Source of the DNA: a virus
Lineage: Duplodnaviria > Caudoviricetes
Length of the DNA stretch: 62,089 bases
Strand: one strand, 5' to 3'
IMG/VR virus record: IMGVR_UViG_3300035307_000014
Span: 1-62,089 of that record
The notes beneath the pieces were generated by a model that was not told where the DNA came from, did not search any database, and saw only the letters and a program-made list of their open reading frames with translations. Below, piece by piece: positions 2-44,331 of this stretch (the first letter of the stretch is position 1; every line of letters starts with the position of its first letter). A program made the position numbers and the translations under genes.

Positions 2-259
2 GAGCGACATACGCACGCGAGAGACATTTTTGAGCGCGCCAAGGAGAATGGCAAAGCAAGCCTCCGACGCGCTCAAATGAAATCAGCGCTCGATGGGAAT
101 GTTCAGGCGCAGATATGGCTCGGGAAGCAGTTGTTGGGTCAGAAAGATAAGCAGGAGCTTGAGCATACCGGCAAGGATGGTCAGCCCTTGGTGAAGGAAA
201 CCACGGTGGTCATCTTGCCGTCCAACAGCCGGGACGGCAGCAATGAGCAGGGCGGTTGA
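2..259 (+). CDS. terS: terminase small subunit, C-terminal part (5'-truncated)
   Basis: Frame is open from the window start; GNVQAQIWLGKQLLGQ and EHTGKDGQP motifs; overlaps the terL start. Confidence 0.7.
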   Translation, partial: ERHTHARDIFERAKENGKASLRRAQMKSALDGNVQAQIWLGKQLLGQKDKQELEHTGKDGQPLVKETTVVILPSNSRDGSNEQGG

Positions 260-2831
260 TAAAGTAGTTCATCAAATCCGCCCTCAGTCAGGTCCACAGC
301 ACCACTTTTTAAGCAGTTCAGCAGATATTGCAATATATGGCGGGAGCGCTGGCGGCGGTAAAAGTTATGCGCTGCTTCTTGAGCCTCTCAGACACATAAA
401 GAACAGCAAGTTTTCTGCGGTAATATTTAGAAGGACACTTACTGACGTTAAAAAGACTGGCTCTCTGTGGGATACAAGTGTTGAACTGTACGGCTCCATC
501 GGGGGGAAGCCAGTTAACAGCACGCTGACATGGGATTTTAAAAGTGGAGCCAAAATAACATTCGGGCATCTAGAGCATGAAGGCACAGTTCTAAACTGGC
601 AAGGAAGTCAAGTCCCACTTCTTTGCGTGGCGGTTGGTACAAAAGTGCGGATGGCCGATGGCTCATTGCTCCCGATAGAGCAAATAACCATCGGTGACAA
701 GGTAATGACGCTGCGGGGAAGTCGCAACGTTACATCAGTGAGCAAGCCGCAGCGAAAGCAATGCGTTGAGGCTACCATTGGTGGGGAAAAGCAGCTACAT
801 CCTACTGACCACCCTATACTGACTGCTGACGGATGGCTGTCTTGGGACGACCTGAAACTCCTTTGCGTGCAAGATTGCGCATCCACGTCACTTTGTGATC
901 TGCGCAGATTTGAGCCGCTAATTGCGAAGAGATGCTGTGCTCAGCAGCCAGTTTCCTCACGGATATCAGAGGGTTTTTCGCCGCTTCAAGCACAATCCGG
1001 ATCGTCTCATGATCTAATCGGTGATGTGGAGTTGCTCTCTTGTGAAGGAGATGATCAAAGCCATAGCGCAATGTCTGGTGACAGACACCAAGCACAGCAG
1101 CAGCCTCAATCGTTGTCCGTCCTTGCAGCGCGGCACGTACCATATCCTCGGTTATCCCCTGAGGGACAGGAATTAGATGGCGGAACTTCTTCTGATATAG
1201 AGTCGCAGTGCTCACTCCAAGATAGGCAGCCGCTTCCCGCACGGTGCGCCCGATCAGGGCGGATCGCACGTCACCATCTTTCAGAAATTGGCGACGGGGA
1301 GGGATTAAGTCGGGATAGTGAGTGCGGATCGAATCAACGCCACACTTCAGCAGCTTCGCGGCTTTTGTCAAACCGTGCGTTAGAATTGCTGGATGAACTT
1401 CCTCTCTTGACAGGAGATGAATGCCCCCTCTTAAGCGGGCATGAAGAGCATGGTGATCAGCTTTCAACATCACATCAAGATTTTTCGGGTTGTTGTTCGC
1501 GGGATCAAAATCTCTGTGGTGAACATCCTCTTCGCGGAAAAGAAGTCTTCCAATGTCATCCTCAGCAACCAAGCGGTGTTGAGGGACCATTTTTTCCTTC
1601 GTTGTCGCGTTCGGATGCCATGGGGCATGCTCAAGAATATAGCCATGCTTATCGTATCGAGTTCTCCCACCCTTATACGTCGGAGGAGAGGGTTTCTTCT
1701 GAACTTGTTCGCTTTGAGGCATGCGAAATAGCTCCTGTAGGAGTGCAAGATGTTATTGATATTACCGTTGATGGCGAAAACCATTATATAACCGAAAATG
1801 GGTTAGTCAATAAAAATTGTTTCGACGAGCTTACCCATTTTAGCCGTGCGCAGTTCTTTTACATGATGTCCCGCAACCGTTCGGGAAGCGGTGTCCGCCC
1901 TTACATTAGAGCGACCACAAATCCTGACTCGGATAGCTGGGTTGCCGAATTCATATCCTGGTGGATCGACCAGAAGACGGGACTTCCCATCCTGGAGCGG
2001 TCGGGCGTCATCCGGTGGTTTGTCCGTGTCGGAGACGTGCTCCAGTGGGCGGACACCCAAGCCGAGTTGATCGAGCGTTTCGGGGCCGAGGTTGTCCCAA
2101 AGTCGGTGACGTTCGTCCCTGCCCGCCTGGAAGACAACGCCATCCTGATGCAGATGGACCCAGGCTACCGGGCGAACCTGCTGGCGCTGCCGAGGGTTGA
2201 GCGAGAACGCCTCCTTGGCGGCAACTGGAAAGTTCGGCCGTCGTCTGGCCTCTACTTCCGCCGCGAATGGACCGAGATCGTTGACGCCATCCCAGAGGGG
2301 ACGGATTTTGTCCGAGGTTGGGATTTAGGCGCAACCGAAAAGACCAGCGAGAATGATCCCGATTGGACGGCCGGCACGAAGATTGGCCGGATGCCAGACG
2401 GTCGCTTTATCGTCGCGCACCATACACGCATGCGAGAGACTCCACTGAAGGTTGAGCGTGCCGTACTCAACACAGCTTCTGCGGATGGTCGAAAGGTTCG
2501 CATTGCATTACCGCAAGACCCTGGACAAGCAGGAAAAGACCAAGCACTGCGATATGTGCGCATGCTGGCCGGATACACAGTTCATGTCGGTCCAGCAACT
2601 GGAGACAAGATCACTAGATTTTCACCGTTCTCCGCTCAGGCCGAGTCTGGGAACGTAGTCGTTTTGCGCGGATCATGGAATGATGACTGGTTCACGGTGT
2701 TAGAAAACTTTCCTGAAGGCGCGCATGACGATGATGTCGATTCCACAAGTGAAGCCTTCAATCATCTTTGTGCTCGTGGACGCATGACTATTTCTGATAG
2801 TGCCGTGAGAGCATCTGGAGCGCTCCGGTAA
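243..2831 (+). CDS. terL: terminase large subunit precursor containing an intein (spliced product about 464 aa)
   Basis: Walker A YGGSAGGGKS; Walker B (C)FDE immediately after the intein; ATTNP motif; RNase H-like nuclease motifs RGWDLG and HDDDVD. Confidence 0.95.
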   Translation: MSRAVDKVVHQIRPQSGPQHHFLSSSADIAIYGGSAGGGKSYALLLEPLRHIKNSKFSAVIFRRTLTDVKKTGSLWDTSVELYGSIGGKPVNSTLTWDFKSGAKITFGHLEHEGTVLNWQGSQVPLLCVAVGTKVRMADGSLLPIEQITIGDKVMTLRGSRNVTSVSKPQRKQCVEATIGGEKQLHPTDHPILTADGWLSWDDLKLLCVQDCASTSLCDLRRFEPLIAKRCCAQQPVSSRISEGFSPLQAQSGSSHDLIGDVELLSCEGDDQSHSAMSGDRHQAQQQPQSLSVLAARHVPYPRLSPEGQELDGGTSSDIESQCSLQDRQPLPARCARSGRIARHHLSEIGDGEGLSRDSECGSNQRHTSAASRLLSNRALELLDELPLLTGDECPLLSGHEEHGDQLSTSHQDFSGCCSRDQNLCGEHPLRGKEVFQCHPQQPSGVEGPFFPSLSRSDAMGHAQEYSHAYRIEFSHPYTSEERVSSELVRFEACEIAPVGVQDVIDITVDGENHYITENGLVNKNCFDELTHFSRAQFFYMMSRNRSGSGVRPYIRATTNPDSDSWVAEFISWWIDQKTGLPILERSGVIRWFVRVGDVLQWADTQAELIERFGAEVVPKSVTFVPARLEDNAILMQMDPGYRANLLALPRVERERLLGGNWKVRPSSGLYFRREWTEIVDAIPEGTDFVRGWDLGATEKTSENDPDWTAGTKIGRMPDGRFIVAHHTRMRETPLKVERAVLNTASADGRKVRIALPQDPGQAGKDQALRYVRMLAGYTVHVGPATGDKITRFSPFSAQAESGNVVVLRGSWNDDWFTVLENFPEGAHDDDVDSTSEAFNHLCARGRMTISDSAVRASGALR
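624..1817 (+). mobile_element. intein (398 aa) inserted just before the Walker B motif of TerL
   Basis: Block A CVAVGTKVRMADGS; block B region DHPILTADGW; blocks F/G VIDITVDGENHYITENGLVNKN followed by +1 Cys; excision restores WQGSQVPLL-CFDELTHF. Confidence 0.92.
814..1722 (-). CDS. HNH endonuclease with about four C-terminal HTH repeats, antisense within the intein
   Basis: QHRLVAE..IGR...EDVHHRDFDPANNNPKNL HNH motif; HTH-like repeats (TVREAAAYLGVSTATLY, TTIEAAAVLGVCHQTLR); AGGAG RBS 9 nt upstream of the ATG. Confidence 0.85.
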   Translation of the reverse strand: MPQSEQVQKKPSPPTYKGGRTRYDKHGYILEHAPWHPNATTKEKMVPQHRLVAEDDIGRLLFREEDVHHRDFDPANNNPKNLDVMLKADHHALHARLRGGIHLLSREEVHPAILTHGLTKAAKLLKCGVDSIRTHYPDLIPPRRQFLKDGDVRSALIGRTVREAAAYLGVSTATLYQKKFRHLIPVPQGITEDMVRAALQGRTTIEAAAVLGVCHQTLRYGFDHLLHKRATPHHRLDHETIRIVLEAAKNPLISVRKLAAEHSISSQLAAQICADHKVTWMRNLARKGVSGRPKTAIRQQSV

Positions 2832-5800
2832 TGAACGCCCAATCCACGCCTATCCGCCGCGAGCACGGGCGCAAGCGGGCGCTGGGCGCGTGGCGGAACC
2901 GCGATGCGCAGTTGTCTCTCGGGCTTGAGCCGGAGCGGGAGCGCAAGCCGATGAAGATTGGCTACATGGCGCACGCCCAGGCGTATGCGCAGCCTCCGCA
3001 GCAACGGGCATCAGAAGAGCCATTCGCGCCGTACAAGCCTGCCACAGGCGTAGTCCCGGCAGGCGCCAGCATGGCGATGGACGACGCCGGTTTCAGCGCG
3101 CTAGGATGGGCTCACCAGGCATATCTTGGTTCTGACGCCTATGCTGAGGGGCAGACCTTTCTTGGCTATCCTGCGCTTGCTCAGCTCGCTGTGCGGCCCG
3201 AGTATCGGCTGATCAGCGAGACCATTGCGACGGAGATGACGCGCAAATGGATATCGATCCAGGGCAAAGGCGACGGGGCGGACAAGTCAGAGAAGATCGC
3301 GCGGATTGAGGCTGAATTCGAGCGATTGAACGTGCGGGACACGTTCCGCGAGATCGCCGTGCAGGACGGGCTCTATGGGCGCGCGCATCTGTATCTCGAC
3401 ACTGGCGATAGCGACAACCAGAGAGAGCTGGAGACCAACCTAGGCGACGGTCGAGACGCTACATCTTGCGCCAAGGTAACTCCTGACCACAAGCTTCGGT
3501 GTATCATGGCCCGCGAGGCCGTGTGGACGTATCCGCAGCGCTTCAATGCGACGAACCCTTTGCGCGCGGACTGGTATCGCCCGGATACGTGGTTTGTGAT
3601 GGGGCAGCAGGTTCACGCGTCGCGGCTTTTGACGTTCGTCGGGCGCGAGGTGCCGGACATCCTCAAGCCAGCGTATGCGTTCGGTGGTCTGTCGCTGACA
3701 CAGATGGCCAAGCCCTACGTTGACAACTGGCTCGTCACCCGGCAGTCAGTTCAGGACATCATCCGCTCGTTCACTGTGTTCGTGCTAAAGACTAACATGA
3801 GCGCTGTGCTTCAAGGCGGCGGCGGAGATGATGTATTCCGCCGTGTAGACATGTTCAACGCCACGCGTGACAACCGTGGCACGATGGTTCTTGACAAGGA
3901 TACTGAAGAATTCGCTAACGTTTCTGCTTCGCTTGGGAGTTTAGACCATCTTCAGGCGCAAGCACAGGAGCATTTGGCATCGGTGAGTCGTATTCCTCTC
4001 GTGAAACTGACAGGTATCTCCCCATCAGGGCTCAATGCATCTAGTGATGGGGAGCTACGTTGCTTCGGAGACCTGATTCATTCCGAACAAGAGAGCCTGT
4101 TCCGCGCCAATCTTACTCGCATTCTCGGATTTGTTCAACTGTCTCTTTTCGGTGAGGTCGATCCGGATATTACCTTTGAATTCCTCCCGATCTACGAACT
4201 GACCGAGTCCGAGAAAGCCCAACTCCGCGCCACCGAGGCGACAACCGGAAAAACCCTGATCGAAGTCGGCGCACTCAGCCCGCAGGAAGAGCGCGCGCGT
4301 GTGGCCCACGATCCAGAGACGCCCTATGCGGGCCTCGACATCGACAAGATGCCGGATCTGCGCCAGGAGGAAGCCGAGGGGCTTATGCCTGGTGGCCACG
4401 AGCCTCCCGCTCCACAGGGCGCGAAGGAAGAGGCCAAGGACGGCGGCGATGAGCAGGTGGAGCTGATCCGCAAGCTATTCGGCAATGGCTTGGATGAAAC
4501 CCAGATCGAGACCATCAGGCGGCTGTTCGGAAGCGGCGAGCACAAAGATGAGGCGCTGAGCATCATCCGGAAGCTGTTTGGCAACAAGGCCACGGCGCAT
4601 GATCACGCCATAGCGATGGACTTTTCGGAGACCGACCACACTCGCGGCGGCAATCCTAAAAACCCTGGGCAATTCAGCAAAGGCGCCGGTGGCGGCACAC
4701 CCAAGGGTAAAAGAAAAGACAAAACTCAGAAGGTTGACCCCGCGCTGATTGGCCAAGTCCACGAAGCGCTGGCGCAGTCTCACCCCGAATTGGCGGCGGC
4801 GATTGCTAAACAGTTTGGGCTGAAGCCTCAGGATGCCAAGAAGAAAGCCGCATCCAAGCAAAAGGCTGGCGCGAAGCTTGTGGGTGATCCGCGCAAGATC
4901 ACCACGCCCGACGGCTCCATGGAAGTCACTGCGCAGCCAGAGCTTGTTGAGCTTGCGGACCTCATGCACGCCGAGGGCGATCTACAGCCGCGTAACCGCG
5001 ACACAGCCGAAAGCAAGGTGATGGCTCGCCAGCGTGCGGCAAGTCTCGACCCTGAGCAGTTGCAGCCTGGACGCGTTTCCGATGCGGGCGCCCCGATTGT
5101 CACAGCCGAAGGGACCGTGATTTCTGGCAATGGTCGCACGATGTCGATCCGCGAGGCGTACAACGATCCGAAGTTTGCTGAGCGGGCGGAAGCCTACAAG
5201 GCTGCGCTCGGGCCGGATGCCGAGGGCATGAAGCAGCCTGTGCTTGTCATGCGCCTGCCGAAAGACATGGATCATAAGCAACTCGTTGAGTTTGCCGACA
5301 AATCCAATCGTTCGCGCATCGAGGGCATGTCAGCCACGGAGCGGGCCAAGCGCGACGCGACGGCATTGGGACCAGACACGGCGGCGCTTTATCAAGGAGG
5401 AGACTTCACATCGCCAGCGAACCGCCAGTTCCTGCACGCGTTCACACAGAAGGCTATGACGGCCAACGAACGGGCGCAATTCTCGAAAGACGGCAAGCTC
5501 ACGAAAGAGGGCGTTGACCGGATGAGCGCGGCGGTCCTGGCCAGCGCTTACGACGATGTGGACGCCTTGTCGCTCATGCTGGAAAGCACGGACGACAACG
5601 TGAAGTCGATCACGAACGCCATGCGCGACACTGCCGGGAAGTTCGCCCAGCTCAAGTCTGGCGTGGCTTCTGGCCAAGTGTTGCCCGGCATGGACGTGAC
5701 GACGCAGATTGCAGACGCGGCCAAGCTTGTATCGAGCCTGCGGAAGCGCGGTGTATCACCGGCGAACCACTTCGATCAACTCGACGCCTTCGATAAGCCA

Positions 5801-6373
5801 GACCCGATGGTTGAGGCTTTGGTTCGGTCCTTCTACAGCGAAGGATTGACGCGCTCAGTATCTCAGCAGAAAATTATAGCCATTCTCGGCGCTTATGCTG
5901 ATGAAGCTGCTAAGCATCAACCTGGAGGCATCTTCCCCGATGAAACCAAATCATCTGAAGTCCTCGCCCTCGCAAACAGAAAAGCCAAAGGACAAGAGTC
6001 CACAGGCGAAATCGACTTGTTCAACCGCCCTACTGGTCATGAGCCAAGCCATGAGCAAGGTGGGGAACGAGACGGGCGACAAGGAGTTGCTGCAACAGGC
6101 GGACAATCTGGCGGCGGCGGCGAAGAAAAGCCAGTAGCCAAGGCGGCGCCAGCCAAGAAGCCTCGGGCGAAAGCCGCGACCAAGCCCAAGGGCGAAGCCC
6201 CGGCGAAGGCCGCCAAGTCCAAAGAGCCCAAGCAGCCGAAAGCAGCGAAGCCCAAGAAGGCGGATCTGATCTCCCAGCTCAAGGGGCTAGGTCAGAGCCC
6301 CAGCTCGCGAGCAACCATTGCAAAGCTGAAAGAGATGCTGGCCGATATCGAGAAGTCGAATGATGCGTCATGA
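2831..6373 (+). CDS. portal protein (DUF1073 type) fused to a DdrB-like ParB domain and a Lys-rich tail
   Basis: First ~510 aa are portal-like (EMTRKWI, IPLVKLTGISPSGLNASSDGE); later DLQPRNRD..LDPEQL..GAPIV...VISGNGR ParB-like motif; lies directly after terL. Confidence 0.85.
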   Translation: MNAQSTPIRREHGRKRALGAWRNRDAQLSLGLEPERERKPMKIGYMAHAQAYAQPPQQRASEEPFAPYKPATGVVPAGASMAMDDAGFSALGWAHQAYLGSDAYAEGQTFLGYPALAQLAVRPEYRLISETIATEMTRKWISIQGKGDGADKSEKIARIEAEFERLNVRDTFREIAVQDGLYGRAHLYLDTGDSDNQRELETNLGDGRDATSCAKVTPDHKLRCIMAREAVWTYPQRFNATNPLRADWYRPDTWFVMGQQVHASRLLTFVGREVPDILKPAYAFGGLSLTQMAKPYVDNWLVTRQSVQDIIRSFTVFVLKTNMSAVLQGGGGDDVFRRVDMFNATRDNRGTMVLDKDTEEFANVSASLGSLDHLQAQAQEHLASVSRIPLVKLTGISPSGLNASSDGELRCFGDLIHSEQESLFRANLTRILGFVQLSLFGEVDPDITFEFLPIYELTESEKAQLRATEATTGKTLIEVGALSPQEERARVAHDPETPYAGLDIDKMPDLRQEEAEGLMPGGHEPPAPQGAKEEAKDGGDEQVELIRKLFGNGLDETQIETIRRLFGSGEHKDEALSIIRKLFGNKATAHDHAIAMDFSETDHTRGGNPKNPGQFSKGAGGGTPKGKRKDKTQKVDPALIGQVHEALAQSHPELAAAIAKQFGLKPQDAKKKAASKQKAGAKLVGDPRKITTPDGSMEVTAQPELVELADLMHAEGDLQPRNRDTAESKVMARQRAASLDPEQLQPGRVSDAGAPIVTAEGTVISGNGRTMSIREAYNDPKFAERAEAYKAALGPDAEGMKQPVLVMRLPKDMDHKQLVEFADKSNRSRIEGMSATERAKRDATALGPDTAALYQGGDFTSPANRQFLHAFTQKAMTANERAQFSKDGKLTKEGVDRMSAAVLASAYDDVDALSLMLESTDDNVKSITNAMRDTAGKFAQLKSGVASGQVLPGMDVTTQIADAAKLVSSLRKRGVSPANHFDQLDAFDKPDPMVEALVRSFYSEGLTRSVSQQKIIAILGAYADEAAKHQPGGIFPDETKSSEVLALANRKAKGQESTGEIDLFNRPTGHEPSHEQGGERDGRQGVAATGGQSGGGGEEKPVAKAAPAKKPRAKAATKPKGEAPAKAAKSKEPKQPKAAKPKKADLISQLKGLGQSPSSRATIAKLKEMLADIEKSNDAS

Positions 6374-7178
6374 GGCTCGGATCGCGCTGATCCGCCGCCT
6401 CTTCGGCCACAAGCCGCATCTGGCGCAAGACAAGGACTTCCGGGCTGAGCGCATCGCTTGGGCACATTCTCGCCGGGCAGAAACACGTTATGCTGTTCAG
6501 TTGCGCAAGCTGTGCCGGAACATCGAGTTCATCATCAGCGGCGGGGTCAACCCCGAGCGCCCGACTGAGACGAATACGATTGAAGACATGTTGCTTGAGT
6601 ACGCCAACCTGATCACGCCATGGGCGCAGGTGACGGCAGGGCGCATGCTCCTCGACATTGATCGCCGGGACAAGGTCCAGTGGGCGCGCCATGCCCGCAC
6701 AATGAGCCGGGCGATCCGCGAGGAGATCGAGACCGCGCCAACAGGCGACATTCTCCGCAAGCTCCAGGATGAGCAAGTGACGCTGATCAAGTCTCTGCCG
6801 ATCCAGGCGGCGCAGCGCGTCCACGACATTGCCCTCAAAGGGATAACCGAGGGGACGCGGGGCGAAGACATCGTTGCGAATATCATGGCTACAGGGCAGG
6901 TGACGCAGTCACGCGCCGAATGCATTGCTCGCACGGAAACAAGTAGAGCGGCAAGCAACTTCCAGCAAGCTCGCGCTCAATACATCGGAAGTAAAAGTTA
7001 TCGTTGGGTGTCTATTGGTGATGTCGATGTAAGGCGAGATCACAAGGAACTAAACGGAAAGACTTTTGACTGGAACAACCCGCCAGTTGCAGACAAAAGA
7101 TCTGGGGCGAGAGCGCATCCAGGTGCAATCTATAATTGCAGATGCGTCGCCATACCAATATTGCCCGATGAATTCTGA
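6360..7178 (+). CDS. MuF / SPP1 gp7-like head morphogenesis protein
   Basis: IARTETSRA, VRRDH and HPGAIYNCRC motifs. Confidence 0.92.
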   Translation: MMRHEARIALIRRLFGHKPHLAQDKDFRAERIAWAHSRRAETRYAVQLRKLCRNIEFIISGGVNPERPTETNTIEDMLLEYANLITPWAQVTAGRMLLDIDRRDKVQWARHARTMSRAIREEIETAPTGDILRKLQDEQVTLIKSLPIQAAQRVHDIALKGITEGTRGEDIVANIMATGQVTQSRAECIARTETSRAASNFQQARAQYIGSKSYRWVSIGDVDVRRDHKELNGKTFDWNNPPVADKRSGARAHPGAIYNCRCVAIPILPDEF

Positions 7179-7202
7179 CAATAGCAAAGTAGAGACAAAC
7201 TA

Positions 7203-8621
7203 ATGCCCCCGGTTTCTGAAAAGCAACGCAAAGCTATGTTTGCGGCGGCAAGTGGGAATTCTACTTTGGGTATACCGCGAAAAGTTGGAGAAGAGTTCGT
7301 TGGAAAAGTCTCCAAAGACGCCGATACTTCTTCAGAGTTGCCTTCCGCTGCTGGCGTGATGTTGACTGATCCCGATGGCCGCGTGCTGTTCCTGCGCCGC
7401 AGCGGTGAGGGCGATCACCCCGGCGAATGGTGTTGGCCTGGCGGCGGCGCTGATCCAGGCGAGACTCCCGAGGAAGCCGCACGCCGCGAGGTTGAGGAAG
7501 AGACCGGCCACAGGATCGACGGTGATCTGTCCCCGGTTGACCATAGTGAGGACGATGTGGATTTCCACACGTTCGCCCATCAGCTCCCGCAGCGCTTTCA
7601 GCCGCATCTGAACGAAGAGCATTCGGCGCACGTCTGGGCGCATCCATCGAAGCCCCCACAGCCGCTTCACCCTGGCGTTGCGGACACGCTGAGCCGCCTC
7701 AGTGGCGCGCAGGACGCCGAAGGCAACAAGGGGAACCCGCAGGGCGCGCTGAGCCAACAGGAAGAGGCCGAAGCCGCCAAAGGTCATGCCGAACGCGAGG
7801 AGATGCCCGAGAGCGTCTTCCTGGAACCGGGCGCGCGCAAATACCCTGTGAAGGAGAAGCACGACGGCAAATGGGTCTACTCCCGCAATCTGTTGTTGGC
7901 CGCCGCCCGCCGCGCTCGGATGCAGGGACATGAGAGTCTGGCCGCGCGTGCTGATGCAATCCGGAACCGAGAATTTGGCGACGCCGAGGCGAAAGATTGC
8001 AGCGGGACCGCGATGGACGCAATGGCGTTTGATCGCAGTTCGGTTCGCTCCTACGACGCCGATGGAAGATTACACGTTTCTGCAACGCCGATTTCGAAAA
8101 GCAACGTGTGCGAGTACCTAGGGAGGGAGATCCCCGGCGCTGAAGAATTGCACCTAGACCCATCGAAACGCTACCGCCTATGGCGTCACCCCGAAGAATT
8201 GGCCAAAGCGGCTCCAACTTTCAACAACATACCCGTGCTATCTCGCCATGTCCCCGTGAGCGCTGAAGACTATCAGCCCGAGATCGTCATTGGCTCAACT
8301 GGCACCGATGCTGTATTTGACGAGCCATATCTCAAGAACTCGCTGGTTATTTGGGCGAAATCTGCCATTGACGGGGTGGAACGGGAGACGAAGAAAGAGC
8401 TTTCATCGGCGTATAGGTACAAAGCCGACATGACTTCAGGCAAAACGCCAGATGGCGAAGCTTTTGATGGTATTATGCGTAGTATAGTAGGCAACCACGT
8501 AGCGGTAGTACCTGACGGTCGCGCTGGTCCCGATGTTGTCGTTGCCGACTCCGCCGATGAACTGCTTTGGGCGCGCATCGAACAAGCCCTAAACGCCGCC
8601 TTCCCCAACGCTTTCCGCTAA
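7203..8621 (+). CDS. Nudix hydrolase fused to a DUF2213-type putative prohead protease
   Basis: Nudix box [23 protein letters not shown]; DUF2213 motifs [30 protein letters not shown]. Confidence 0.85.
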
Positions 8622-8633
8622 CGGACCACCAAA

Positions 8634-9836
8634 ATGCGCGCTCGCGTCGAAACCATCCGCCGCCTCTTCGGAAGCAGCGCCGCTCCCGGCTGCGCTCTCG
8701 ACGCTCGTGATCCGGCAACGATCAAGCGCGACAAAAACGGGCGCTTCGCGAAGTCGGCATCCAGCGGCGGCGCAAGCACAGCAAAGCCCATGCCAAAGAA
8801 AGACGTGAGCGCTCAGGCGCACGCAGCGGCTAAGGCGAAAGTGGCAGAGAACGCAGCGAAGCCGAAGAAGGCTGCGCCCAAAAAGACGGCGGCCAGCAAA
8901 GAGAAGGCTCCGGCCGAGGGCAGGGCGGCGAAGCCGAAGACCGCAAAGGTCAAGTCCGAAAAGACACCGGCTGCCACCAAAGAGGCAAAGCCGGTCACCG
9001 AAAAGCAGAAGAAGAGCATAGTAGCCGCCGCCTTGAAGGAGGCTCCAGCGGCTACGTCAAGACCGCTTCGCAACAAAATACTCGACGCATATCTGAAATC
9101 CACGGGTGGAAAAATAAACACACGCGCGCTGTTGACTGATGTGCGCGCCGCCCTTCCTGACGTGGACAGGGAAACACTAGATAAAGAACTGAAGCAGCTC
9201 CAGGTTGAAGAGAAGGCTTTACTGTATCCACTCGACAATCTTATCGGGGAGCACAATGGGGACCCCAATGGACCGGCAAAGATTGCGGCGTTGAAGGAAG
9301 CCGCAATTCATATCGCTGGATCACCGCGCCATCTGCTCTGGATTGAGAACGGTTGGGAACGAGAGCCAGAAGAGACCGCCGAACCATCGCCGAAATCCAA
9401 GAGGGCGCCAGCCAAGACAAGAACTCAGGAGAAGTCCCCGAAGGAAACGGCGTCGCCCAAGGCAGAGAAACAGCCAAAGACCACCAAATCCAAGAAGCCG
9501 ACACAGGAAGAGCGCGTCGCCAAGTTCAATGAGCGGTACACGAACGCGATGAGCGCAAAGCCGTCCAGGCGAAGGGGCGCGGCGGAAAGCCCCGCAGCAG
9601 CGCCAAAGACCGATGCGACCGTGGCGCCAGCGTCAAAAGCCCCCGTGCCAGAGACCGCGCCAAGGCCAACGAAGAAAGCAGCATCAAAAAAGGCAAGCGT
9701 TGAGGCCAAGACGCCCACGCCAAAGAAACCCAAGCCGCCTACCGCCAAATTCCCAGAGTCGATGGCGGCTAAACCAAGCTGGATGCGCGATCCAGAGGGG
9801 TCAACGTCTGTTTTTGCCAAGAAAAAGTCACCGTAA
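8634..9836 (+). CDS. Lys/Ala/Pro-rich putative internal head protein with a central globular domain
   Basis: Highly basic low-complexity arms; RDKNGRF motif; central helical domain; located among head genes. Confidence 0.65.
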   Translation: MRARVETIRRLFGSSAAPGCALDARDPATIKRDKNGRFAKSASSGGASTAKPMPKKDVSAQAHAAAKAKVAENAAKPKKAAPKKTAASKEKAPAEGRAAKPKTAKVKSEKTPAATKEAKPVTEKQKKSIVAAALKEAPAATSRPLRNKILDAYLKSTGGKINTRALLTDVRAALPDVDRETLDKELKQLQVEEKALLYPLDNLIGEHNGDPNGPAKIAALKEAAIHIAGSPRHLLWIENGWEREPEETAEPSPKSKRAPAKTRTQEKSPKETASPKAEKQPKTTKSKKPTQEERVAKFNERYTNAMSAKPSRRRGAAESPAAAPKTDATVAPASKAPVPETAPRPTKKAASKKASVEAKTPTPKKPKPPTAKFPESMAAKPSWMRDPEGSTSVFAKKKSP

Positions 9837-9847
9837 CCGAAAAATAA

Positions 9848-11527
9848 ATGTCAGTATCACTAGATGGCGCATGGGTCGAGAGCGAACATGCTCGTCGCGG
9901 TGCTGGCAAAGGCGGCGGCCAATTCATCAAAGGTTACTCCCGCGCAGGAACAGCAGCCGCGCATTCGAACGATAGACTTAAGCGCAGCATCTCCCAGATG
10001 CTCCCAAAGGGGATATCCGCTGAAGTTGTTCCGAAAGTCGTAATCGAGAGTCATCCGGACGGCGGGACTCGCGTGCTGAAATTGCAGCAGGGCGAAAAAC
10101 TCAGCCGCCAACCGGGATGCACTTACCATGAAAGCGGCGGCGTCTTCATGAAGACGAGTGGAAAACTCGTTGTCTCCATGGAGTTCGGACCAGAAGAGGC
10201 TGAGGGTCTTGCGTGGCACGAGGCTTTCCACGCGTTAGACTTCGACGGGGACAAAGGCTTGTTCACCCCGAAAGAGCGTGAAGAACTGCTTGCCTATTCG
10301 TTCAAAACTGGCGCGATCAAGAAAGCAAAGCTCCAGGAATATCTGTCGCTATACGAAAGACAAGGTAAGCGCAAGGGACTTACCGGCGATGAGCTGAAGT
10401 CTTACGTTCATCGCCACGCGACCAGCGAAGTCATAAGCCACGCTCTAGAGAAACATCATCCTGATAAGAATAGCCCAATCTCGCACATCTTAGACAAGAT
10501 AAGATCAGGCGAAATAGCAAGAAGGTCTTCGCCGCGTCAAGTTGCGGGAGATCGCGCTTTGCCTAAGGAAAACTCCAAAATGACCAAGCTTGAAAACGCG
10601 TTGCGAGAGAAGTTCGCGACGCCAGCGGCCGCGATCCGCGCTCTCGGCCTCGACGAAGCCTTGCTGCGCGAAGATGGAAACACGATGAGCAAGAGAGACA
10701 AAGCCGTGCGGGCCGGGCTGAAAGAGATGCTCGCCCAAGACGCGTCGCTGGCGGAACTCACTGAGTTCCTCCAGACGCTTAACGCCACTGGAGGCGATGG
10801 TGCCGCTGAAGAGGGCGGCGAATTCGAGGATGAGGACGGCGAAGACGAGATCCCCGGCGCCGTCACCGAGCCGAACGCTGGCGTCCCGCCGATTGGTGGT
10901 GAAGGCGAAGGCGAACATTCCGACGAAGTCGCCACTGACGAACCGGCAGCGGCCATCCACGCGATCCTGAAGGACAAGCTCAGCCCCGATGAGTTGGCCC
11001 GAATCGGCGAGCTGCTTGAGAAGATCGCCACGCCCGAAGGCGACGAAGACAACGACTACGAAGGCGACATAGAAGGCGCCGTCGAGCAGCACACCGGAAT
11101 AAAGCCCGATGGTGAAGAGAAAACCGAGGGAGAAGACGAGGATAACACGGACATGAACGAGAAGCAGGATCTTGTGACGCGCCCGGCGATGGATGAAGCC
11201 ATTCGCACGGCTGTGGCCAATGCTGAGAAGCGTGCCGCTGAGAAGGCAAACGCCTTGAGGATCGCTGAGAGGACCGTAGAGCCGTATGTCGGCAAGCTGG
11301 CCCTGGACGCCGCTCTGGATGCCGATGGCGTCTACCGCAAGGCGCTGACCATGCTCGGCGTTGAAGGCGCTGACACCGTCCACCCGTCCGCGCTCACGCT
11401 CCTGCTCAAGGCCCAGCCTCTGCCTGGCAGCGCTCCGCGTCGCGAACCTCGTCTCGCTCAGGATGCTGCGACTGTTAAGGCGACCCTTGACCGTTTCCCG
11501 AATGCTGGCCGCCTGAAGCGCGCCTGA
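9848..11527 (+). CDS. HExxH zincin-like peptidase domain fused to an acidic scaffold protein (possible internal start at 10580)
   Basis: WHEAFH plus downstream Glu; acidic C-terminal half with AMD/AQD motifs ending RFPNAGRLKRA; AAGGA upstream of the in-frame ATG at 10580. Confidence 0.75.
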   Translation: MSVSLDGAWVESEHARRGAGKGGGQFIKGYSRAGTAAAHSNDRLKRSISQMLPKGISAEVVPKVVIESHPDGGTRVLKLQQGEKLSRQPGCTYHESGGVFMKTSGKLVVSMEFGPEEAEGLAWHEAFHALDFDGDKGLFTPKEREELLAYSFKTGAIKKAKLQEYLSLYERQGKRKGLTGDELKSYVHRHATSEVISHALEKHHPDKNSPISHILDKIRSGEIARRSSPRQVAGDRALPKENSKMTKLENALREKFATPAAAIRALGLDEALLREDGNTMSKRDKAVRAGLKEMLAQDASLAELTEFLQTLNATGGDGAAEEGGEFEDEDGEDEIPGAVTEPNAGVPPIGGEGEGEHSDEVATDEPAAAIHAILKDKLSPDELARIGELLEKIATPEGDEDNDYEGDIEGAVEQHTGIKPDGEEKTEGEDEDNTDMNEKQDLVTRPAMDEAIRTAVANAEKRAAEKANALRIAERTVEPYVGKLALDAALDADGVYRKALTMLGVEGADTVHPSALTLLLKAQPLPGSAPRREPRLAQDAATVKATLDRFPNAGRLKRA

Positions 11528-11548
11528 TTGTCCTAAGGATTTCAAGCA

Positions 11549-12508
11549 ATGACCACAGCTATTATCGGACAAACGTCCATCAACATCACGCAGGCGCCTG
11601 CTGTCGCGGGTGACTTCGCGTCCACCAATCCCCGGCATAGCGCGCTAACTCCGGCTGAAGGCGCGTTCCAGGCTGGTTTAAGCGGCTGCACCATCGGCCT
11701 GTTCGCCTGGATCGACAGTCTCGGCAACTACGTGAACAACTTTGGCTCGGGAACGCCGAATGCTTTCGTGGCGCGTACTCAAGAAGCGCTGATCACGACT
11801 TATGCGAGCCCCTATGGCAGCACGATCCCGGCTGGTTTCATGGTCGGGAATGCTTTCGACCGTGGCGACTTCTGGGTTTCGAACTCCGGATCAACCGCCG
11901 CCATTCCCGGAATGAAAGCGTATGCCAATTTTGTGACTGGCGCCGTGTCCTTCAACTGGACAGGAAACGCGACCACTTCAACCACCGCGACCACTGGAGC
12001 CACTGTTGCAGCCGGAACCGCCGCGACATTCACTGGCGTGATTGTGAACGGCGTGCTCACAGCGAGCGCAGTCACGAACACCATCTATCCCGGCGCCGTC
12101 CTCACTGGCGGATCGGCAATCTCGGGAACCTATGTTACTGCGCAGCTCACTGGCACTGCGGGCGGCGCTGGCACCTATTCCGTCTATCCGAGCAATCAGT
12201 CGGCTGTGTCTGCCGCACTCACCGCGACTCCCGCAGTGCTCAATACCGGCACCATGAGTTCTGGAACCGTCGCCATCGGCGACTCCATTGTTAGCACGAG
12301 CGTTTCTGCATCCGGTGTCCTCGTCGGCGCGATAGTGACGGCCTCAGTCACTACAAATCAGTGGGTCTTGGCGCCCGCTCAGGGACAGGCTGCTGTCGGG
12401 ACCGTGGCGAGCAGCACTATCGTTCTGGCGACCAACATCGAAACGAAGTGGTACGCGAAGTCCAATGGCACGCAGTACGAACTCGTGAAGATCAGCGACG
12501 TCGTTTGA
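11549..12508 (+). CDS. head decoration/cement protein
   Basis: QAPAVAGDFASTNPR N-terminus and ETKW..ELVKIS C-terminus typical of the gene before DUF2184 capsids; Thr/Ala-rich insert. Confidence 0.75.
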   Translation: MTTAIIGQTSINITQAPAVAGDFASTNPRHSALTPAEGAFQAGLSGCTIGLFAWIDSLGNYVNNFGSGTPNAFVARTQEALITTYASPYGSTIPAGFMVGNAFDRGDFWVSNSGSTAAIPGMKAYANFVTGAVSFNWTGNATTSTTATTGATVAAGTAATFTGVIVNGVLTASAVTNTIYPGAVLTGGSAISGTYVTAQLTGTAGGAGTYSVYPSNQSAVSAALTATPAVLNTGTMSSGTVAIGDSIVSTSVSASGVLVGAIVTASVTTNQWVLAPAQGQAAVGTVASSTIVLATNIETKWYAKSNGTQYELVKISDVV

Positions 12509-12536
12509 CGCTTAAAGCAACATCAAGGAAGTAATT

Positions 12537-13568
12537 ATGAGAAAAAATCCTGAACTGGTGCGCTTTGAGCGTGACTGGGGCATTGTGTCTACGGCTATGG
12601 ACTACATGCCAGATGACCTGTCCATTGCCATGGACGCGCAGCCTGCGACCATTACGACTGGCAACGCCGGTATTCCGGTGTTTATGCTGAATTGGGTTGA
12701 CCCTGAAGTCATCCGTATTCTTCAAGCTCCGAATGAAGGGGCGAATATCCTCGGAGAGGTGAAGAAGGGCGACTGGACAACCCGGACAGCTTACTTCCCT
12801 ACCATCGAGAATACTGGTCAGGTTGCTGCGTATGGCGACTTTTCCGAGAGCGGAAGATCGAACGCGAACGCTAACTACCCGACCCGTCAGTCATTTAATT
12901 TCCAGACCATCATCGAGTACGGTGATATGGAAGTTGATATGGCGGGGGAAGCGCGGCTGAATTGGGTTTCTGAGAACCAGCAATCGGCGGCGTCTACCCT
13001 CGATAAGTTCATGGACTTGACCTATCACTTTGGCGTCTCCGGCCTCCAGAATGAAGGCTTGCTGAATGCTGCTGGTCTGCCTTCGGCTTTGACGCCCTCG
13101 ACCAAGGCCGCTGGCGGAACCACTTGGATGAGTGCGACGGGCGTGCAGAACGCGACCGCCACCGAAGTCTATGGCGACGTCCAGTCGTTGGTCAACGCCC
13201 TGCTGATCAACTCCAAAGGCCGCATCAAGCCGACTGACGCGATGAGCTTGGTGATGACGCCTGGCTCGGTTGGCGCCCTGAATGCGACCAACGCCTACGG
13301 CAAAACCGCCGCTGAGCTGATCAAGCTCAACTATCCGCAGATGGAAATCAAGGTCTCCGCCCGCTACGCGACTGCGGCCGGAAACGTGGTTCAGCTCTTT
13401 GCCAAGAAGTTCAGTGGCAAAGACACTGGATACTGCGCCTTTACTGAAAAGCAGCGCGATTTTCCAGTAGTCCGTGAGTTGAGCGGATACAAGCAAAAGA
13501 AGATGGCAGGTACTTGGGGTTTCATCCTCCGTTACCCCATCGCCGTTTCTCAGATGATCGGGGTCTAA
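12537..13568 (+). CDS. major capsid protein (DUF2184 type)
   Basis: AMDAQP, GEVKKGDWT and C-terminal GTWGFILRYP; 343 aa; AAGGA RBS. Confidence 0.9.
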   Translation: MRKNPELVRFERDWGIVSTAMDYMPDDLSIAMDAQPATITTGNAGIPVFMLNWVDPEVIRILQAPNEGANILGEVKKGDWTTRTAYFPTIENTGQVAAYGDFSESGRSNANANYPTRQSFNFQTIIEYGDMEVDMAGEARLNWVSENQQSAASTLDKFMDLTYHFGVSGLQNEGLLNAAGLPSALTPSTKAAGGTTWMSATGVQNATATEVYGDVQSLVNALLINSKGRIKPTDAMSLVMTPGSVGALNATNAYGKTAAELIKLNYPQMEIKVSARYATAAGNVVQLFAKKFSGKDTGYCAFTEKQRDFPVVRELSGYKQKKMAGTWGFILRYPIAVSQMIGV

Positions 13569-42095: not shown

Positions 42096-42158
42096 AAACA
42101 GTCGATGATTTTATAGACATTCATTGACAAACATGTGCATGCATGCCAATGTCTGCGC

Positions 42159-42731
42159 ATGAAACTTTCTGTTTGGGCCGAAAGGCAAGGCATTTCCTAC
42201 AAGACTGCGTGGCGCTGGTTTAAAGCCGGGACGCTTCCTGTGCGCGCAGAGCAAATGCCATCTGGAACCGTGATTATTTACGAAGATGAAGCGCCATCCG
42301 CTGCGGTTGCGCTGTACGCTCGCGTCTCCAGCCATGAACAGAAAGATCAACTTGCGGCTCAGCTTGGTAGATTGTCGGAATACGCCAGCAAAGAAAAGCT
42401 TGTCGTCATTCGGTCCATAAGCGAAATCGGCTCAGGACTAAACGGACACCGTCCCAAGCTTATGAAGCTTTTGCGTGATCCTGCGATCTCGGCGATTGTC
42501 GTTGAGCATCGCGACCGGCTTATGCGATTTGGCTCCGAATACGTCGATAGCGCGCTTGCCGCGCAGGGGCGCCGCATCATCGTCGTCAACGTGGACGAGA
42601 TGAAAGACGATCTCGTCCGCGACATGATCGAAGTGCTCACATCCTTCTGCGCTCGCCTCTACGGACGCCGGTCATCGAGAAATCGCGCCAAGAAGGCTGT
42701 TGAAGCCATCGAGAGTGCATCCGATGACTGA
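42159..42731 (+). CDS. tnpA: IS607 serine transposase
   Basis: N-terminal HTH GISYKTAWRW; YARVSS; EHRDRL.RFG; ARLYG.R. Confidence 0.93.
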   Translation: MKLSVWAERQGISYKTAWRWFKAGTLPVRAEQMPSGTVIIYEDEAPSAAVALYARVSSHEQKDQLAAQLGRLSEYASKEKLVVIRSISEIGSGLNGHRPKLMKLLRDPAISAIVVEHRDRLMRFGSEYVDSALAAQGRRIIVVNVDEMKDDLVRDMIEVLTSFCARLYGRRSSRNRAKKAVEAIESASDD

Positions 42732-44331
42732 AACATCGATTTTCACCTACAAGGCCCGCGTCCACGTAACGCCCGAACAGGATGCGCTGCTCTCGGCGTG
42801 GGCGGAATTGCATGGCCGTGCCGAACGGCGCTTCGCGAGCGCGTTTCTGCGCGGAGAAAAGCTTTCATCAGCGCACTGCCTGTTCAAGTCGATCCGCGAC
42901 GAGATGGGCCTTTCTGACCGCAACGCTGGCGCGGCGCTCGTTTCCGCTGACGGCAAGGTCCAGGCTGCGAAGGAGGCCCGCAAGCGTCACGTCTCCGATC
43001 TGCAAGGCAAAATCTCGCGCGCCGAAAAGGTTTTGGCTAAGCCACGGAAACAGCGGCCGATGAAACCGGACGTGATCCACCAGAAGCGCCGCCGTCTAGC
43101 CACGCTGCGCGCCCGGCTCTCTGCGATCCAGACGGAGATGCGCCCCAAGTTGGTTTTCGGCTCCCGCAAACTGCTTCACGCGCAATTCGATCTCGCGGCC
43201 AACGGGTTCGCCAATCATGCGGAGTGGCGGAAAGCGTGGCTGGCGGCCCGCTCCGGCGAAATTATGATCACCGGCCGGAACTCCGAGGCTTCCGGAAACC
43301 TGACATGCCGCGCCAGCTTCGACGGCGACGCCTTCGCGCTGACGCTGCGCGTCCCCTATGCGCTCGAAGCCCAGTTCGGCAAGCACCTGCGGCTCGACGG
43401 CGTCAACTTCCACCACGGCGCAGACGCCATCCTTGCGGCGATCTCGGCGCCGGAGACGCCCTCGACCAAGAGCCAGAAGGCGACCGCGCCCGTCACTTGG
43501 TGCTTTGTCCGCCCTGACGATGGCAAAGGTTGGCTGGTCTACGTCTCGACGCACGTCAAGGCGGCGCCGGTTGTCACGCGTCGCGAGATGGGCGCCATCG
43601 GCGCAGACTTCAACGCGGACCACATCGCCGTTTCGGAGATTGACCGCCACGGCAATCCGCTCCCGACTCGATGCAAGCGAATTGACCTCGTCACGCGCGG
43701 CAAGACGGCGAACCAACGCAGGGAGCTTGTCCGCGTCGCAGCAAAGGAGATTGCGGAGCACGCCCGCGTCGTCGGCAAGCCGGTCGTCATCGAAAAACTA
43801 GATTTCGCCGAGAAGAAACGCGCTCTTGAGGCGGTTGACACGCGCCGGGCTCGCATGCTTTCCGCGCTGACCTACTCGGCATTTGCCCAAGCACTGCGCG
43901 CGGCCTGCTTTCGCGCTGGCGTCGAAGTCATCGAAGTCAACCCCGCGTGGACCAGCGTCATCGGCGCTGTGAATTACGCAACAAAAACAGGTTTATCCGT
44001 CCACCTTGCGGCTGCTGTGGCAATCGCAAGACGTGGACTGTCTTATCGTGAGACTGCAGTTGGCCGCTCGGCGAAAACGCCGAACGGTCGCGGCGGCCAT
44101 GTCACCTTCGCGCTACCGGATCGGAATCGTGCGAAGCATGTATGGTCGCATTGGGCCGCAATTTCACGAGCAAGGCAGGCGGCGATTAAATCGCATTTCC
44201 TGTCGCTTCGAAAGAGGCGAACAGCGGACAAGTCCTTGGATGAAGACCGCAAGTTCTTACAGGAATTCATGGCTGCGACGCCATGCGCTAATCGTGCTCA
44301 AAGCGGTTCGGAGCGCGTCCATGCCCAATGA
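42724..44331 (+). CDS. tnpB: TnpB-family RNA-guided nuclease-like protein
   Basis: RuvC-I GADFNADH; RuvC-II VIEKLDF; VNPAWTS; no zinc finger. Confidence 0.85.
   Translation: MTETSIFTYKARVHVTPEQDALLSAWAELHGRAERRFASAFLRGEKLSSAHCLFKSIRDEMGLSDRNAGAALVSADGKVQAAKEARKRHVSDLQGKISRAEKVLAKPRKQRPMKPDVIHQKRRRLATLRARLSAIQTEMRPKLVFGSRKLLHAQFDLAANGFANHAEWRKAWLAARSGEIMITGRNSEASGNLTCRASFDGDAFALTLRVPYALEAQFGKHLRLDGVNFHHGADAILAAISAPETPSTKSQKATAPVTWCFVRPDDGKGWLVYVSTHVKAAPVVTRREMGAIGADFNADHIAVSEIDRHGNPLPTRCKRIDLVTRGKTANQRRELVRVAAKEIAEHARVVGKPVVIEKLDFAEKKRALEAVDTRRARMLSALTYSAFAQALRAACFRAGVEVIEVNPAWTSVIGAVNYATKTGLSVHLAAAVAIARRGLSYRETAVGRSAKTPNGRGGHVTFALPDRNRAKHVWSHWAAISRARQAAIKSHFLSLRKRRTADKSLDEDRKFLQEFMAATPCANRAQSGSERVHAQ

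Follow-up and report, generated by a model that had tools for sequence, protein, structure and literature searches.

The virus genome IMGVR_UViG_3300035307_000014 (IMG/VR; 62,089 bp, the entire phage genome and referred to below as the window) carries in its head module a set of short peptides that stand ahead of interchangeable cargo domains. In the reading preferred here, which is given a probability of roughly 55%, cargo is loaded and then clipped: a clade-specific leader peptide, IR[RK]LFG, would direct loading, a protease site would follow it, and a more general peptide would stand at the head of the cargo. The genome also encodes a contractile-tail module, an endolysin, an integrase and an IS607-like insertion, and the locus is the head module of a temperate myovirus.

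Under this reading, the proteins that travel in the capsid would carry up to three short modules ahead of their cargo. The leader would bring unfused cargo into the assembling prohead, and the DUF2213 protease would cut after the Asp of a hydrophobic-A-x-D motif. The same motif would be used to trim the leader of the capsid protein, the N-terminus of the portal and the protease's own N-terminus, and to dismantle the scaffold. After the cut, the junction peptide would be left as the new N-terminus of the cargo, where it may act as a flexible handle by which the cargo is retained or exits. A DdrB-like ParB domain, a HEXXH domain, a NUDIX domain and a basic protein rich in Lys, Ala and Pro make up the cargo, which would be freed in the head and would presumably exit with the DNA.

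The motif IR[RK]LFG has five matches in the six reading frames of the window (124,174 positions), where 0.014 are expected; over 300 shuffles of the bases the mean was 0.013, and no shuffle had more than one match. All five lie in three proteins: in the portal linker (starting at 4466, 4514 and 4565), at the N-terminus of the minor head protein MuF (6390) and at that of the open reading frame (ORF) that starts at 8634 (8655). A preliminary description of the locus had reported these copies together with an AMD, AQD or ALD after the leader and an SLD in ORF 9848. The copies are real, and the tripeptides were found at amino acids (aa) 595-597 of the portal, 22-24 of MuF, 21-23 of ORF 8634 and 4-6 of ORF 9848. 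The consensus of the leader is [V/I]-x-x-I-R-[R/K]-L-F-G, which is amphipathic. Portal linkers have 3-4 copies, MuF and free cargo proteins have a single N-terminal one, and in every case an A-x-D stands 5-10 residues downstream. The features of the head module are as follows (slashes mark cuts or junctions, here and below).

243-2831, plus strand: large terminase, 862 aa
2831-6373, plus strand: portal and ddrB-like ParB cargo in a single 1180-aa ORF; Phage_portal_3 at aa 115-472 (Pfam, 7.6e-74), ParB at aa 697-808 (Pfam, 6.9e-25)
3074..3082, plus strand: A-M-D of the portal N-terminus (aa 82-84), a likely maturation site
4466..4582, plus strand: three IR[RK]LFG repeats of the portal linker
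4613..4621, plus strand: A-M-D that joins the portal linker to the cargo, kept in relatives before differing cargo
4622..4675, plus strand: junction peptide FSETDHTRGGNPKNPGQF, heading the ParB cargo (junction hidden Markov model, 9.9e-08)
6360-7178, plus strand: MuF minor head protein (PF04233, 2.4e-19; TIGR01641, 7.6e-18), with leader at 6390-6407 and L-A-Q-D at 6420-6431
7203-8621, plus strand: NUDIX domain (aa 47-159) and DUF2213 domain, the putative protease (aa 282-450), both by Pfam
8634-9836, plus strand: leader-tagged cargo, with leader at 8655-8672, C-A-L-D at 8691-8702, KRDKNGRF at 8727-8750 and Lys/Ala/Pro-rich stretches
9848-10579, plus strand: cargo domain of ORF 9848 with HEAFHALD at 10217-10240, S-L-D at 9857-9865 and junction peptide WVESEHARRGAGKGGGQF at 9872-9925, without IRRLFG leader
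10580-11527, plus strand: scaffold, in frame with the cargo domain of ORF 9848, with L-A-Q-D, P-A-M-D and L-A-Q-D sites and the tail RFPNAGRLKRA
12537-13568, plus strand: major capsid protein, with leader site I-A-M-D/A-Q-P at 12624-12644

In the portal ORF the linker lies between Phage_portal_3 and the cargo, and the cargo end carries a Lys/Ala/Pro-rich tail. ORF 9848 spans 9848-11527 overall, residues 245-559 being the scaffold. Border sites of ORF 7203 are G-A-Q-D (7707-7715), T-A-M-D (8010-8018) and M-A-F-D (8025-8033). An XM1-gp53-like minor capsid protein is encoded in the head module alongside the major capsid protein. The relatives of the portal in the PDB are the portals of phages E217 and Pa193. 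A megablast search with 2831-13568 gave no match.

Synonymous codons vary among the five leader copies of the window, and the portal copies also differ from one another. Over 20 leader copies from four genomes, 2-6 codons are used per position. The codons vary while the peptide is kept, and selection therefore acts on the peptide and not on the DNA. This bears on the view that the shared peptides are by-products of DNA linkers that promote cassette recombination and have no function as peptides. Such linkers would account for the 17 identical bases shared by the MuF and ORF 8634 copies, and for cargo cassettes that are placed differently in the window and in the viral contig L055, its closest relative; the range of codons at each position under a constant peptide and the divergence of the portal copies at synonymous sites speak against them, and this explanation is scarcely credible.

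The A-x-D motif is found in the head proteins far beyond the leader. A[QM]D occurs 10 times in seven head proteins of the window (3,545 aa) and a single time in the remaining 16,236 aa, which make up 75 crude ORFs. In 80 related loci, which came from a portal-based contig scan, it is 8.2 times as dense in the 303 head ORFs as in the 311 others (364 in 125,841 aa against 40 in 113,891 aa), and [LIVMF]A[QMLFY]D is 16-fold denser in the head ORFs. For A[QM]N, G[QM]D and S[QM]D, used as controls, the head-to-other ratios were 1.1, 1.1 and 0.6, respectively. In the capsid-protein leader, A31, D33 and A34 do not vary among 24 sequences, and all 29 distinct relatives have A-x-D-A. Both A and D of the A-x-D near the portal N-terminus are invariant in 61/61 distinct related portals. 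The 24 scaffolds compared are otherwise poorly conserved; D54, D205 and D295 are invariant, and these Asp residues of three A-x-D-type sites make up most of the invariant positions. A hydrophobic-A-x-D also stands near the N-terminus in seven of the eight next-closest MuF proteins that lack the leader.

Published data on relatives are compatible with cuts at such sites. The A-M-D of the window's capsid protein aligns with AMD62-64 of Pa193 and E217, and the E217 capsid gene reads S-A-M-D64/S-N. In the available text of the E217 report the capsid model begins at residue 66, the first 65 residues being described as possibly cleaved or disordered. The E217 portal gene contains SVAMD72, and the portal model in the same text begins at residue 97. 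For Pa193, the available text of the report states that the first 93 aa of the portal were undetected by liquid chromatography-mass spectrometry. The N-terminus of the mature TLS capsid protein was determined by Edman degradation as ASDMGIW, according to the accessible part of the TLS paper. This peptide corresponds to the RefSeq TLS capsid gene (L135 15072-16061) from residue 33, right after K-N-D32. From these comparisons, A-x-D is very probably a general maturation motif of the whole head, with the protease most likely cutting after the Asp. The protease site that had been proposed at A-x-D in the preliminary description is strongly supported by sequence comparison and by two published observations, one structural and one from Edman degradation.

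A search of a protein collection with the portal linker yielded four homologous portals among 1,978 candidates, all with 3-4 leader copies. In these four the leaders are followed by a conserved [C/V/I]-A-x-D and then by ParB cargo or an unrelated tail of ~50 residues. In the portals P0002-P0005 and that of L055, the site between linker and cargo is CAMD, VAMD, CALD or IAED, ahead of differing cargo. The pattern I-R-x-L-F-G-x-x-P-x-L-A-x-D is kept in 8/8 close MuF homologues, one of which has two copies. P0014 is similar to ORF 8634 over aa 1-128 only, and its C-terminal part differs. ORF 8634 itself has no family in Pfam, PHROGs or NCBIfam. In P0016 and L055 5611-7134, the HEXXH domain of ORF 9848 stands behind a full IRRLFG leader and ahead of an ADP-ribosyltransferase. 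The leader is thus carried by several unrelated proteins (MuF, ORF 8634, P0014, P0016, L055 5611-7134 and L055 7131-7931); four proteins of L055 have it, and across relatives it precedes at least five cargo types. It is present in only 2 of the 80 loci, whose portals are 46-74% identical to that of the window. MuF-based scans of viral, metagenome and genome contigs found distant relatives only, in which the motifs are absent, and a tblastn search of 50,697 phage records with portal linker aa 534-630 and ORF 9848 aa 1-281 gave no match. Burkholderia phage vB_E192a has a similar L-L-R-R-L-F at the very end of its portal. A literature search on MuF, packaging signal and cargo returned nothing relevant.

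The main argument that the leader supplies targeting is that the HEXXH cargo has either the leader or a fusion to the scaffold. Where this cargo is free (P0016, L055) the leader is present; in the window, where it continues in frame into the scaffold, the leader is absent, and S-L-D and the junction peptide are still there. Judged from sequence patterns, the chances are about even that the leader acts as a loading (core-targeting) peptide through which unfused cargo enters the prohead. It could instead be a docking or recognition element for the protease (an exosite), or provide extra cut sites, so that cleavage at the nearby A-x-D is ensured while cargo enters by other means. The constant spacing of 5-10 residues between leader and A-x-D fits such a role, as does the G-L-D-E that follows the first portal repeat and recalls the near-invariant G-L-D-E of the scaffolds; loading of the portal cargo is, moreover, already secured by fusion. 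Most A-x-D sites, however (in the capsid protein, the scaffold, the portal N-terminus and 78 of the 80 loci), have no such element, and the scaffold-fused HEXXH cargo drops the leader yet retains S-L-D, so that an exosite role is unlikely.

The number of portal repeats has given rise to a further explanation, in which leader helices pair with one another and the 3-4 repeats of the portal dock MuF and free cargo, parking the cargo at the portal vertex. The portal and the proteins to be recruited carry the same peptide. L055 has three portal repeats and three other tagged proteins, and the window has three repeats and two tagged proteins, plus one cargo that has moved onto the scaffold. The recruitment of gp7, the MuF homologue of phage SPP1, by the portal can be cited in its support. 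The match in numbers is numerology from two genomes without structural support, however, and vB_E192a has its one similar motif at the portal end and none on MuF; pairing of this kind is given a low probability. A complex prediction with MuF aa 1-45, the scaffold, the capsid protein and the DUF2213 domain yielded no answer (score 0.00 twice, mark 0.32), and no claim on binding is built on it or rejected by it.

For the cutting step of the load-then-clip reading, the DUF2213 domain of ORF 7203 is the candidate protease. Fifty aligned DUF2213 domains start with A-x-D-R (A 98%, D 100%). H86, S138 and H169 are invariant in alignments of 36 and 50 DUF2213 sequences and are kept in Pa193 gp24. PHROGs labels the DUF2213 families as head maturation proteases. 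The AlphaFold2 model of ORF 7203 aa 264-472, built with 36 sequences, has a predicted local distance difference test score (pLDDT) of 89. A VIA-align comparison with 48,161 chains ranked T4 gp21 (5jbl_A) first (Z 10.3, root-mean-square deviation (rmsd) 2.9, 129 aa) and the varicella-zoster virus protease (1vzv_A) second (Z 9.8, rmsd 2.8, 115 aa), with unrelated chains from Z ~5. Foldseek gave three matches at E <= 0.001, all to herpesvirus proteases (Epstein-Barr virus and Kaposi's sarcoma-associated herpesvirus, E 1.7e-4 to 6.6e-4), and T4 gp21 came next (E 0.03). On the predicted structure, DUF2213 is a putative protease of the assemblin/T4-gp21 fold in which the candidate catalytic residues (His-Ser-His) are invariant. 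An hhalign comparison of the DUF2213 alignment with Mu gpI was not significant (probability 0.44%, E 0.14), and an Atlas hint for DUF2213 (Mu-like_Pro, 0.90; YonD_N, 0.94) serves as a lead only. Searched against PDB sequences, the DUF2213-scaffold alignment profile matched Pa193 gp24 solely. In the XM1 paper the head protease was not identified; a term search of the available text of the E217 and Pa193 structure papers found no protease named, and a literature search for 'DUF2213' found no paper on protease function by title or abstract.

The cuts have also been considered as the work of the zincin-like HEXXH domain of ORF 9848, in place of DUF2213, a role that has been proposed for such domains in polyvalent proteins. 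HEAFHALD conforms to the phage-type metallopeptidase signature in the accessible text of Iyer, Burroughs, Anand, de Souza and Aravind (2017; PMC5512222), where processing by a metallopeptidase domain is proposed, and zincins are among the weak fold matches. The domain has no match in Pfam, PHROGs or NCBIfam, and Foldseek gave nothing for the N-terminal domain of ORF 9848 at E <= 0.001. The best VIA score was Z 5.6, the weak matches including PPEP-2 (Z 5.3), lethal-factor-like domains (Z 5.2-5.6) and PprI (Z 4.7), so the model points weakly to a zincin fold. No family or fold match is significant, and A-x-D is invariant in relatives in which DUF2213 was found and a HEXXH domain was not (E217, TLS). 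Cutting by the HEXXH domain is very unlikely.

The scaffold part of ORF 9848 is probably also made alone from the ATG at 10580. A stand-alone 323-aa scaffold of relatives begins at the same Met, and AAGGA is found 10 nt upstream of this ATG in the window. The ends of ORF 7203 (A-F-P-N-A-F-R, 8540-8618) and of the scaffold (R-F-P-N-A-G-R-L-K-R-A, 11470-11527) are similar, and the scaffold tail is conserved in 24 sequences. The FPNA-type tail may be a real capsid-binding element of the protease protein and the scaffold. Such a candidate element would have been retained on both halves after cargo genes split the protease-scaffold gene.

The third module is the junction peptide. An R..G[QR]F motif in three proteins was part of the preliminary description, and the peptides HTRGGNPKNPGQF (4643-4675), KRDKNGRF (8727-8750) and HARRGAGKGGGQF (9887-9925) were all found. 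The short form G[QR]F has 31 six-frame matches and is common, hence not significant alone; it is the extended form and the position that count. The extended peptide reads [W/F]-x-E-x-x-H-P-R-x(3-9)-G-[Q/K/R]-F and is followed by a Gly-rich stretch. Its core has 19 distinct matches in the sequences compared, 16 of which have a small-x-D 0-3 residues upstream. Two matches were set aside as out-of-context frames, and a hidden Markov model was built from 17 copies. This model recovers weaker copies, among them that of ORF 8634 and a second junction within a portal-Acb1-ADP-ribosyltransferase fusion; it has no match in distant Firmicutes loci. The junction peptide heads LPD3 (in vB_E192a), ParB and cargo that holds an ADP-ribosyltransferase, and is also found within longer portal tails with a His-phosphatase, Zeta-kinase-like or NUDIX domain. 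In the model of ORF 9848 aa 1-244, aa 1-35 are disordered (pLDDT < 30). The junction peptide stands directly after the predicted cut and would thus be the mature N-terminus of the cargo. A self-cleaving Asp-Gly element was considered as its role and dropped, as D-G is present in some copies only. A literature search for the H-P-R...G-x-F motif gave no relevant paper.

A separate conserved peptide opens ORF 7203 (window 7203-7320; S-E-K-Q-R-K-A-M...S-T-L-G-I-P-x-K-V-G-E-E-F). It also opens P0042 and the L055 homologue, is internal in P0140 and P0048, and has a weak phrog_16759 match. It may be another tag-like peptide.

Several points weigh against the load-then-clip reading. The sequences in the comparative counts are kin, and the counts are not independent events. 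The missing N-termini of E217 and Pa193 may, in the accessible text of their authors, reflect disorder and not cutting. The TLS cut site is K-N-D and not A-x-D, and the TLS paper, in the part available, surmises the removal of 45 residues, unlike the position found here. The leader is absent in 78 of the 80 related loci, in which MuF and the portal cargo do without it, so it is not essential to the general mechanism. The portal cargo is covalently attached and does not need the leader for its incorporation, so the portal repeats require another explanation. A bolder form of the reading is a portable address, in which the leader docks to the prohead core, the portal repeats possibly serve as docking sites, one per cargo type, the universal cut after Asp frees the cargo, and the Gly-rich handle retains it and then lets it exit with the DNA. 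This form is tentative and somewhat doubtful. The modular address of the preliminary description stands as to layout, in that leader, A-x-D, G[QR]F and cargo follow one another and the cargo is swapped in relatives. Three points were missed in it: A-x-D is a general head motif and not part of the tag, G[QR]F is the core of a far wider junction peptide, and IRRLFG is limited to a tiny clade (2/80 loci). The capsid-binding helix and the DNA-binding or ejection motif that it also proposed are conjectural.

Related portals fuse effector domains in one frame (Acb1 plus ADP-ribosyltransferase, ADP-ribosyltransferase, His_Phos_1, Zeta_toxin-like and NUDIX). The longer portal tails of relatives comprise 15 distinct ones with ParB, Acb1 plus ADP-ribosyltransferase, ADP-ribosyltransferase, His-phosphatase, Zeta-kinase-like or NUDIX domains. 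In L073 (10825-12618), L110 (11264-12331), L119 and L122, the portal C-terminal cargo is Acb1 (2.3e-39; directed against the cyclic-oligonucleotide-based antiphage signalling system, CBASS) with an ADP-ribosyltransferase, a Zeta-toxin-like kinase, or histidine phosphatases.

Outside these genes, the large terminase holds a Hint/intein-like insert at ~aa 128-520, with first residues C-V-A-V-G-T-K and the end N-K-N/C. Pfam Hint families score below the cut-off. The insert is open in the plus frame, yet its content resembles nonsense, and a 302-aa HNH_3 and helix-turn-helix endonuclease is encoded antisense to it (814-1722, minus strand). The insert may be an intein with a homing endonuclease encoded antisense. 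L055 has a differing terminase of 469 aa without the insert. Between the endolysin and the early genes (42135-44331) lies the IS607-like pair, a transposase of the serine-recombinase type (phrog_6620, 3.4e-50) and a TnpB-like ORF.

To our knowledge, the loading of non-structural proteins into phage heads is largely unknown outside T4 and P1. The locus offers a concrete, testable set of rules (leader, Asp-specific cut, junction peptide) for the large family of head modules with Phage_portal_3, MuF, DUF2213 and DUF2184, to which therapeutically used PB1-like Pseudomonas phages and the T1-like coliphages belong. By modelling, a protease fold is assigned to DUF2213. Relatives carry Acb1 (against CBASS), ADP-ribosyltransferases, ParB-like nucleases, NUDIX and kinases among their cargo, which points to a set of counter-defence proteins packed in advance. 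With a defined address, the cargo of these phages could be engineered, and if the portable address is true, phages of this family, PB1-like ones included, could load and deliver any protein.

The capsid targeting sequence (CTS) of phage T4 (IPI-III, Alt; removed by gp21) is likewise a short N-terminal peptide common to several internal head proteins, and in the window a predicted protease site follows. T4 gp21 (PDB 5jbl) has the same fold as the DUF2213 model (Z 10.3). The sequences are unrelated, and the cut predicted here is after the Asp of hydrophobic-A-x-D, whereas T4 cuts after Glu by the rule L/I-x-E. In the window, the leader is also repeated in the portal linker, and a second, glycine-rich peptide would stay on the cargo. 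The T4 CTS concept is taken as quoted in PMC9024508, the available text of which also describes an N-terminal 30-residue capsid targeting signal of P1 DarB that loads antirestriction-type cargo, and a cut of the P1 capsid protein after Glu120. The portal cargo of the window has a ddrB-like ParB domain (Pfam 6.9e-25) in common with P1 DdrB and is fused to the portal, not free as in P1. By annotation, Mu I/Z likewise has a scaffold whose translation starts in frame inside a longer head gene. Lambda C/Nu3 are nested protease-scaffold genes. The window differs from both in that the upstream part is a cargo domain and the protease is in a separate gene, ORF 7203.

Coliphage TLS (T1-like; protease gp33, capsid gp36) has the same Pfam set (DUF2213, 4.4e-23; PF09950; PF06381). 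It has K-N-D/A rather than A-x-D/A, and no tagged cargo was found among the TLS genes read. E217 and Pa193 (PB1-like Pseudomonas phages) have a related portal, capsid protein and DUF2213-scaffold, the last (gp24 in Pa193) being described as a putative scaffold in the available text of the Pa193 paper. In both, an A-M-D borders the ordered part of the capsid protein and another falls in the unseen N-terminus of the portal, and, unlike in the window, there is no IRRLFG leader. The polyvalent proteins, in the accessible text of PMC5512222, are effector domains on portal or MuF that are presumed to be injected, and the effector types shared with the window and its relatives are DdrB-ParB, NUDIX, ADP-ribosyltransferase, 2H/Acb1 and HEXXH peptidase (a putative one in the window). 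In the window, an effector (ddrB-ParB) is found in one frame with the portal, as in those proteins. No leader, A-x-D rule or H-P-R...G-x-F peptide was found in the available main text of that paper, and its supplement may list such motifs. The three-module address would be a variation on the theme of T4 and P1 capsid targeting and of the polyvalent proteins.

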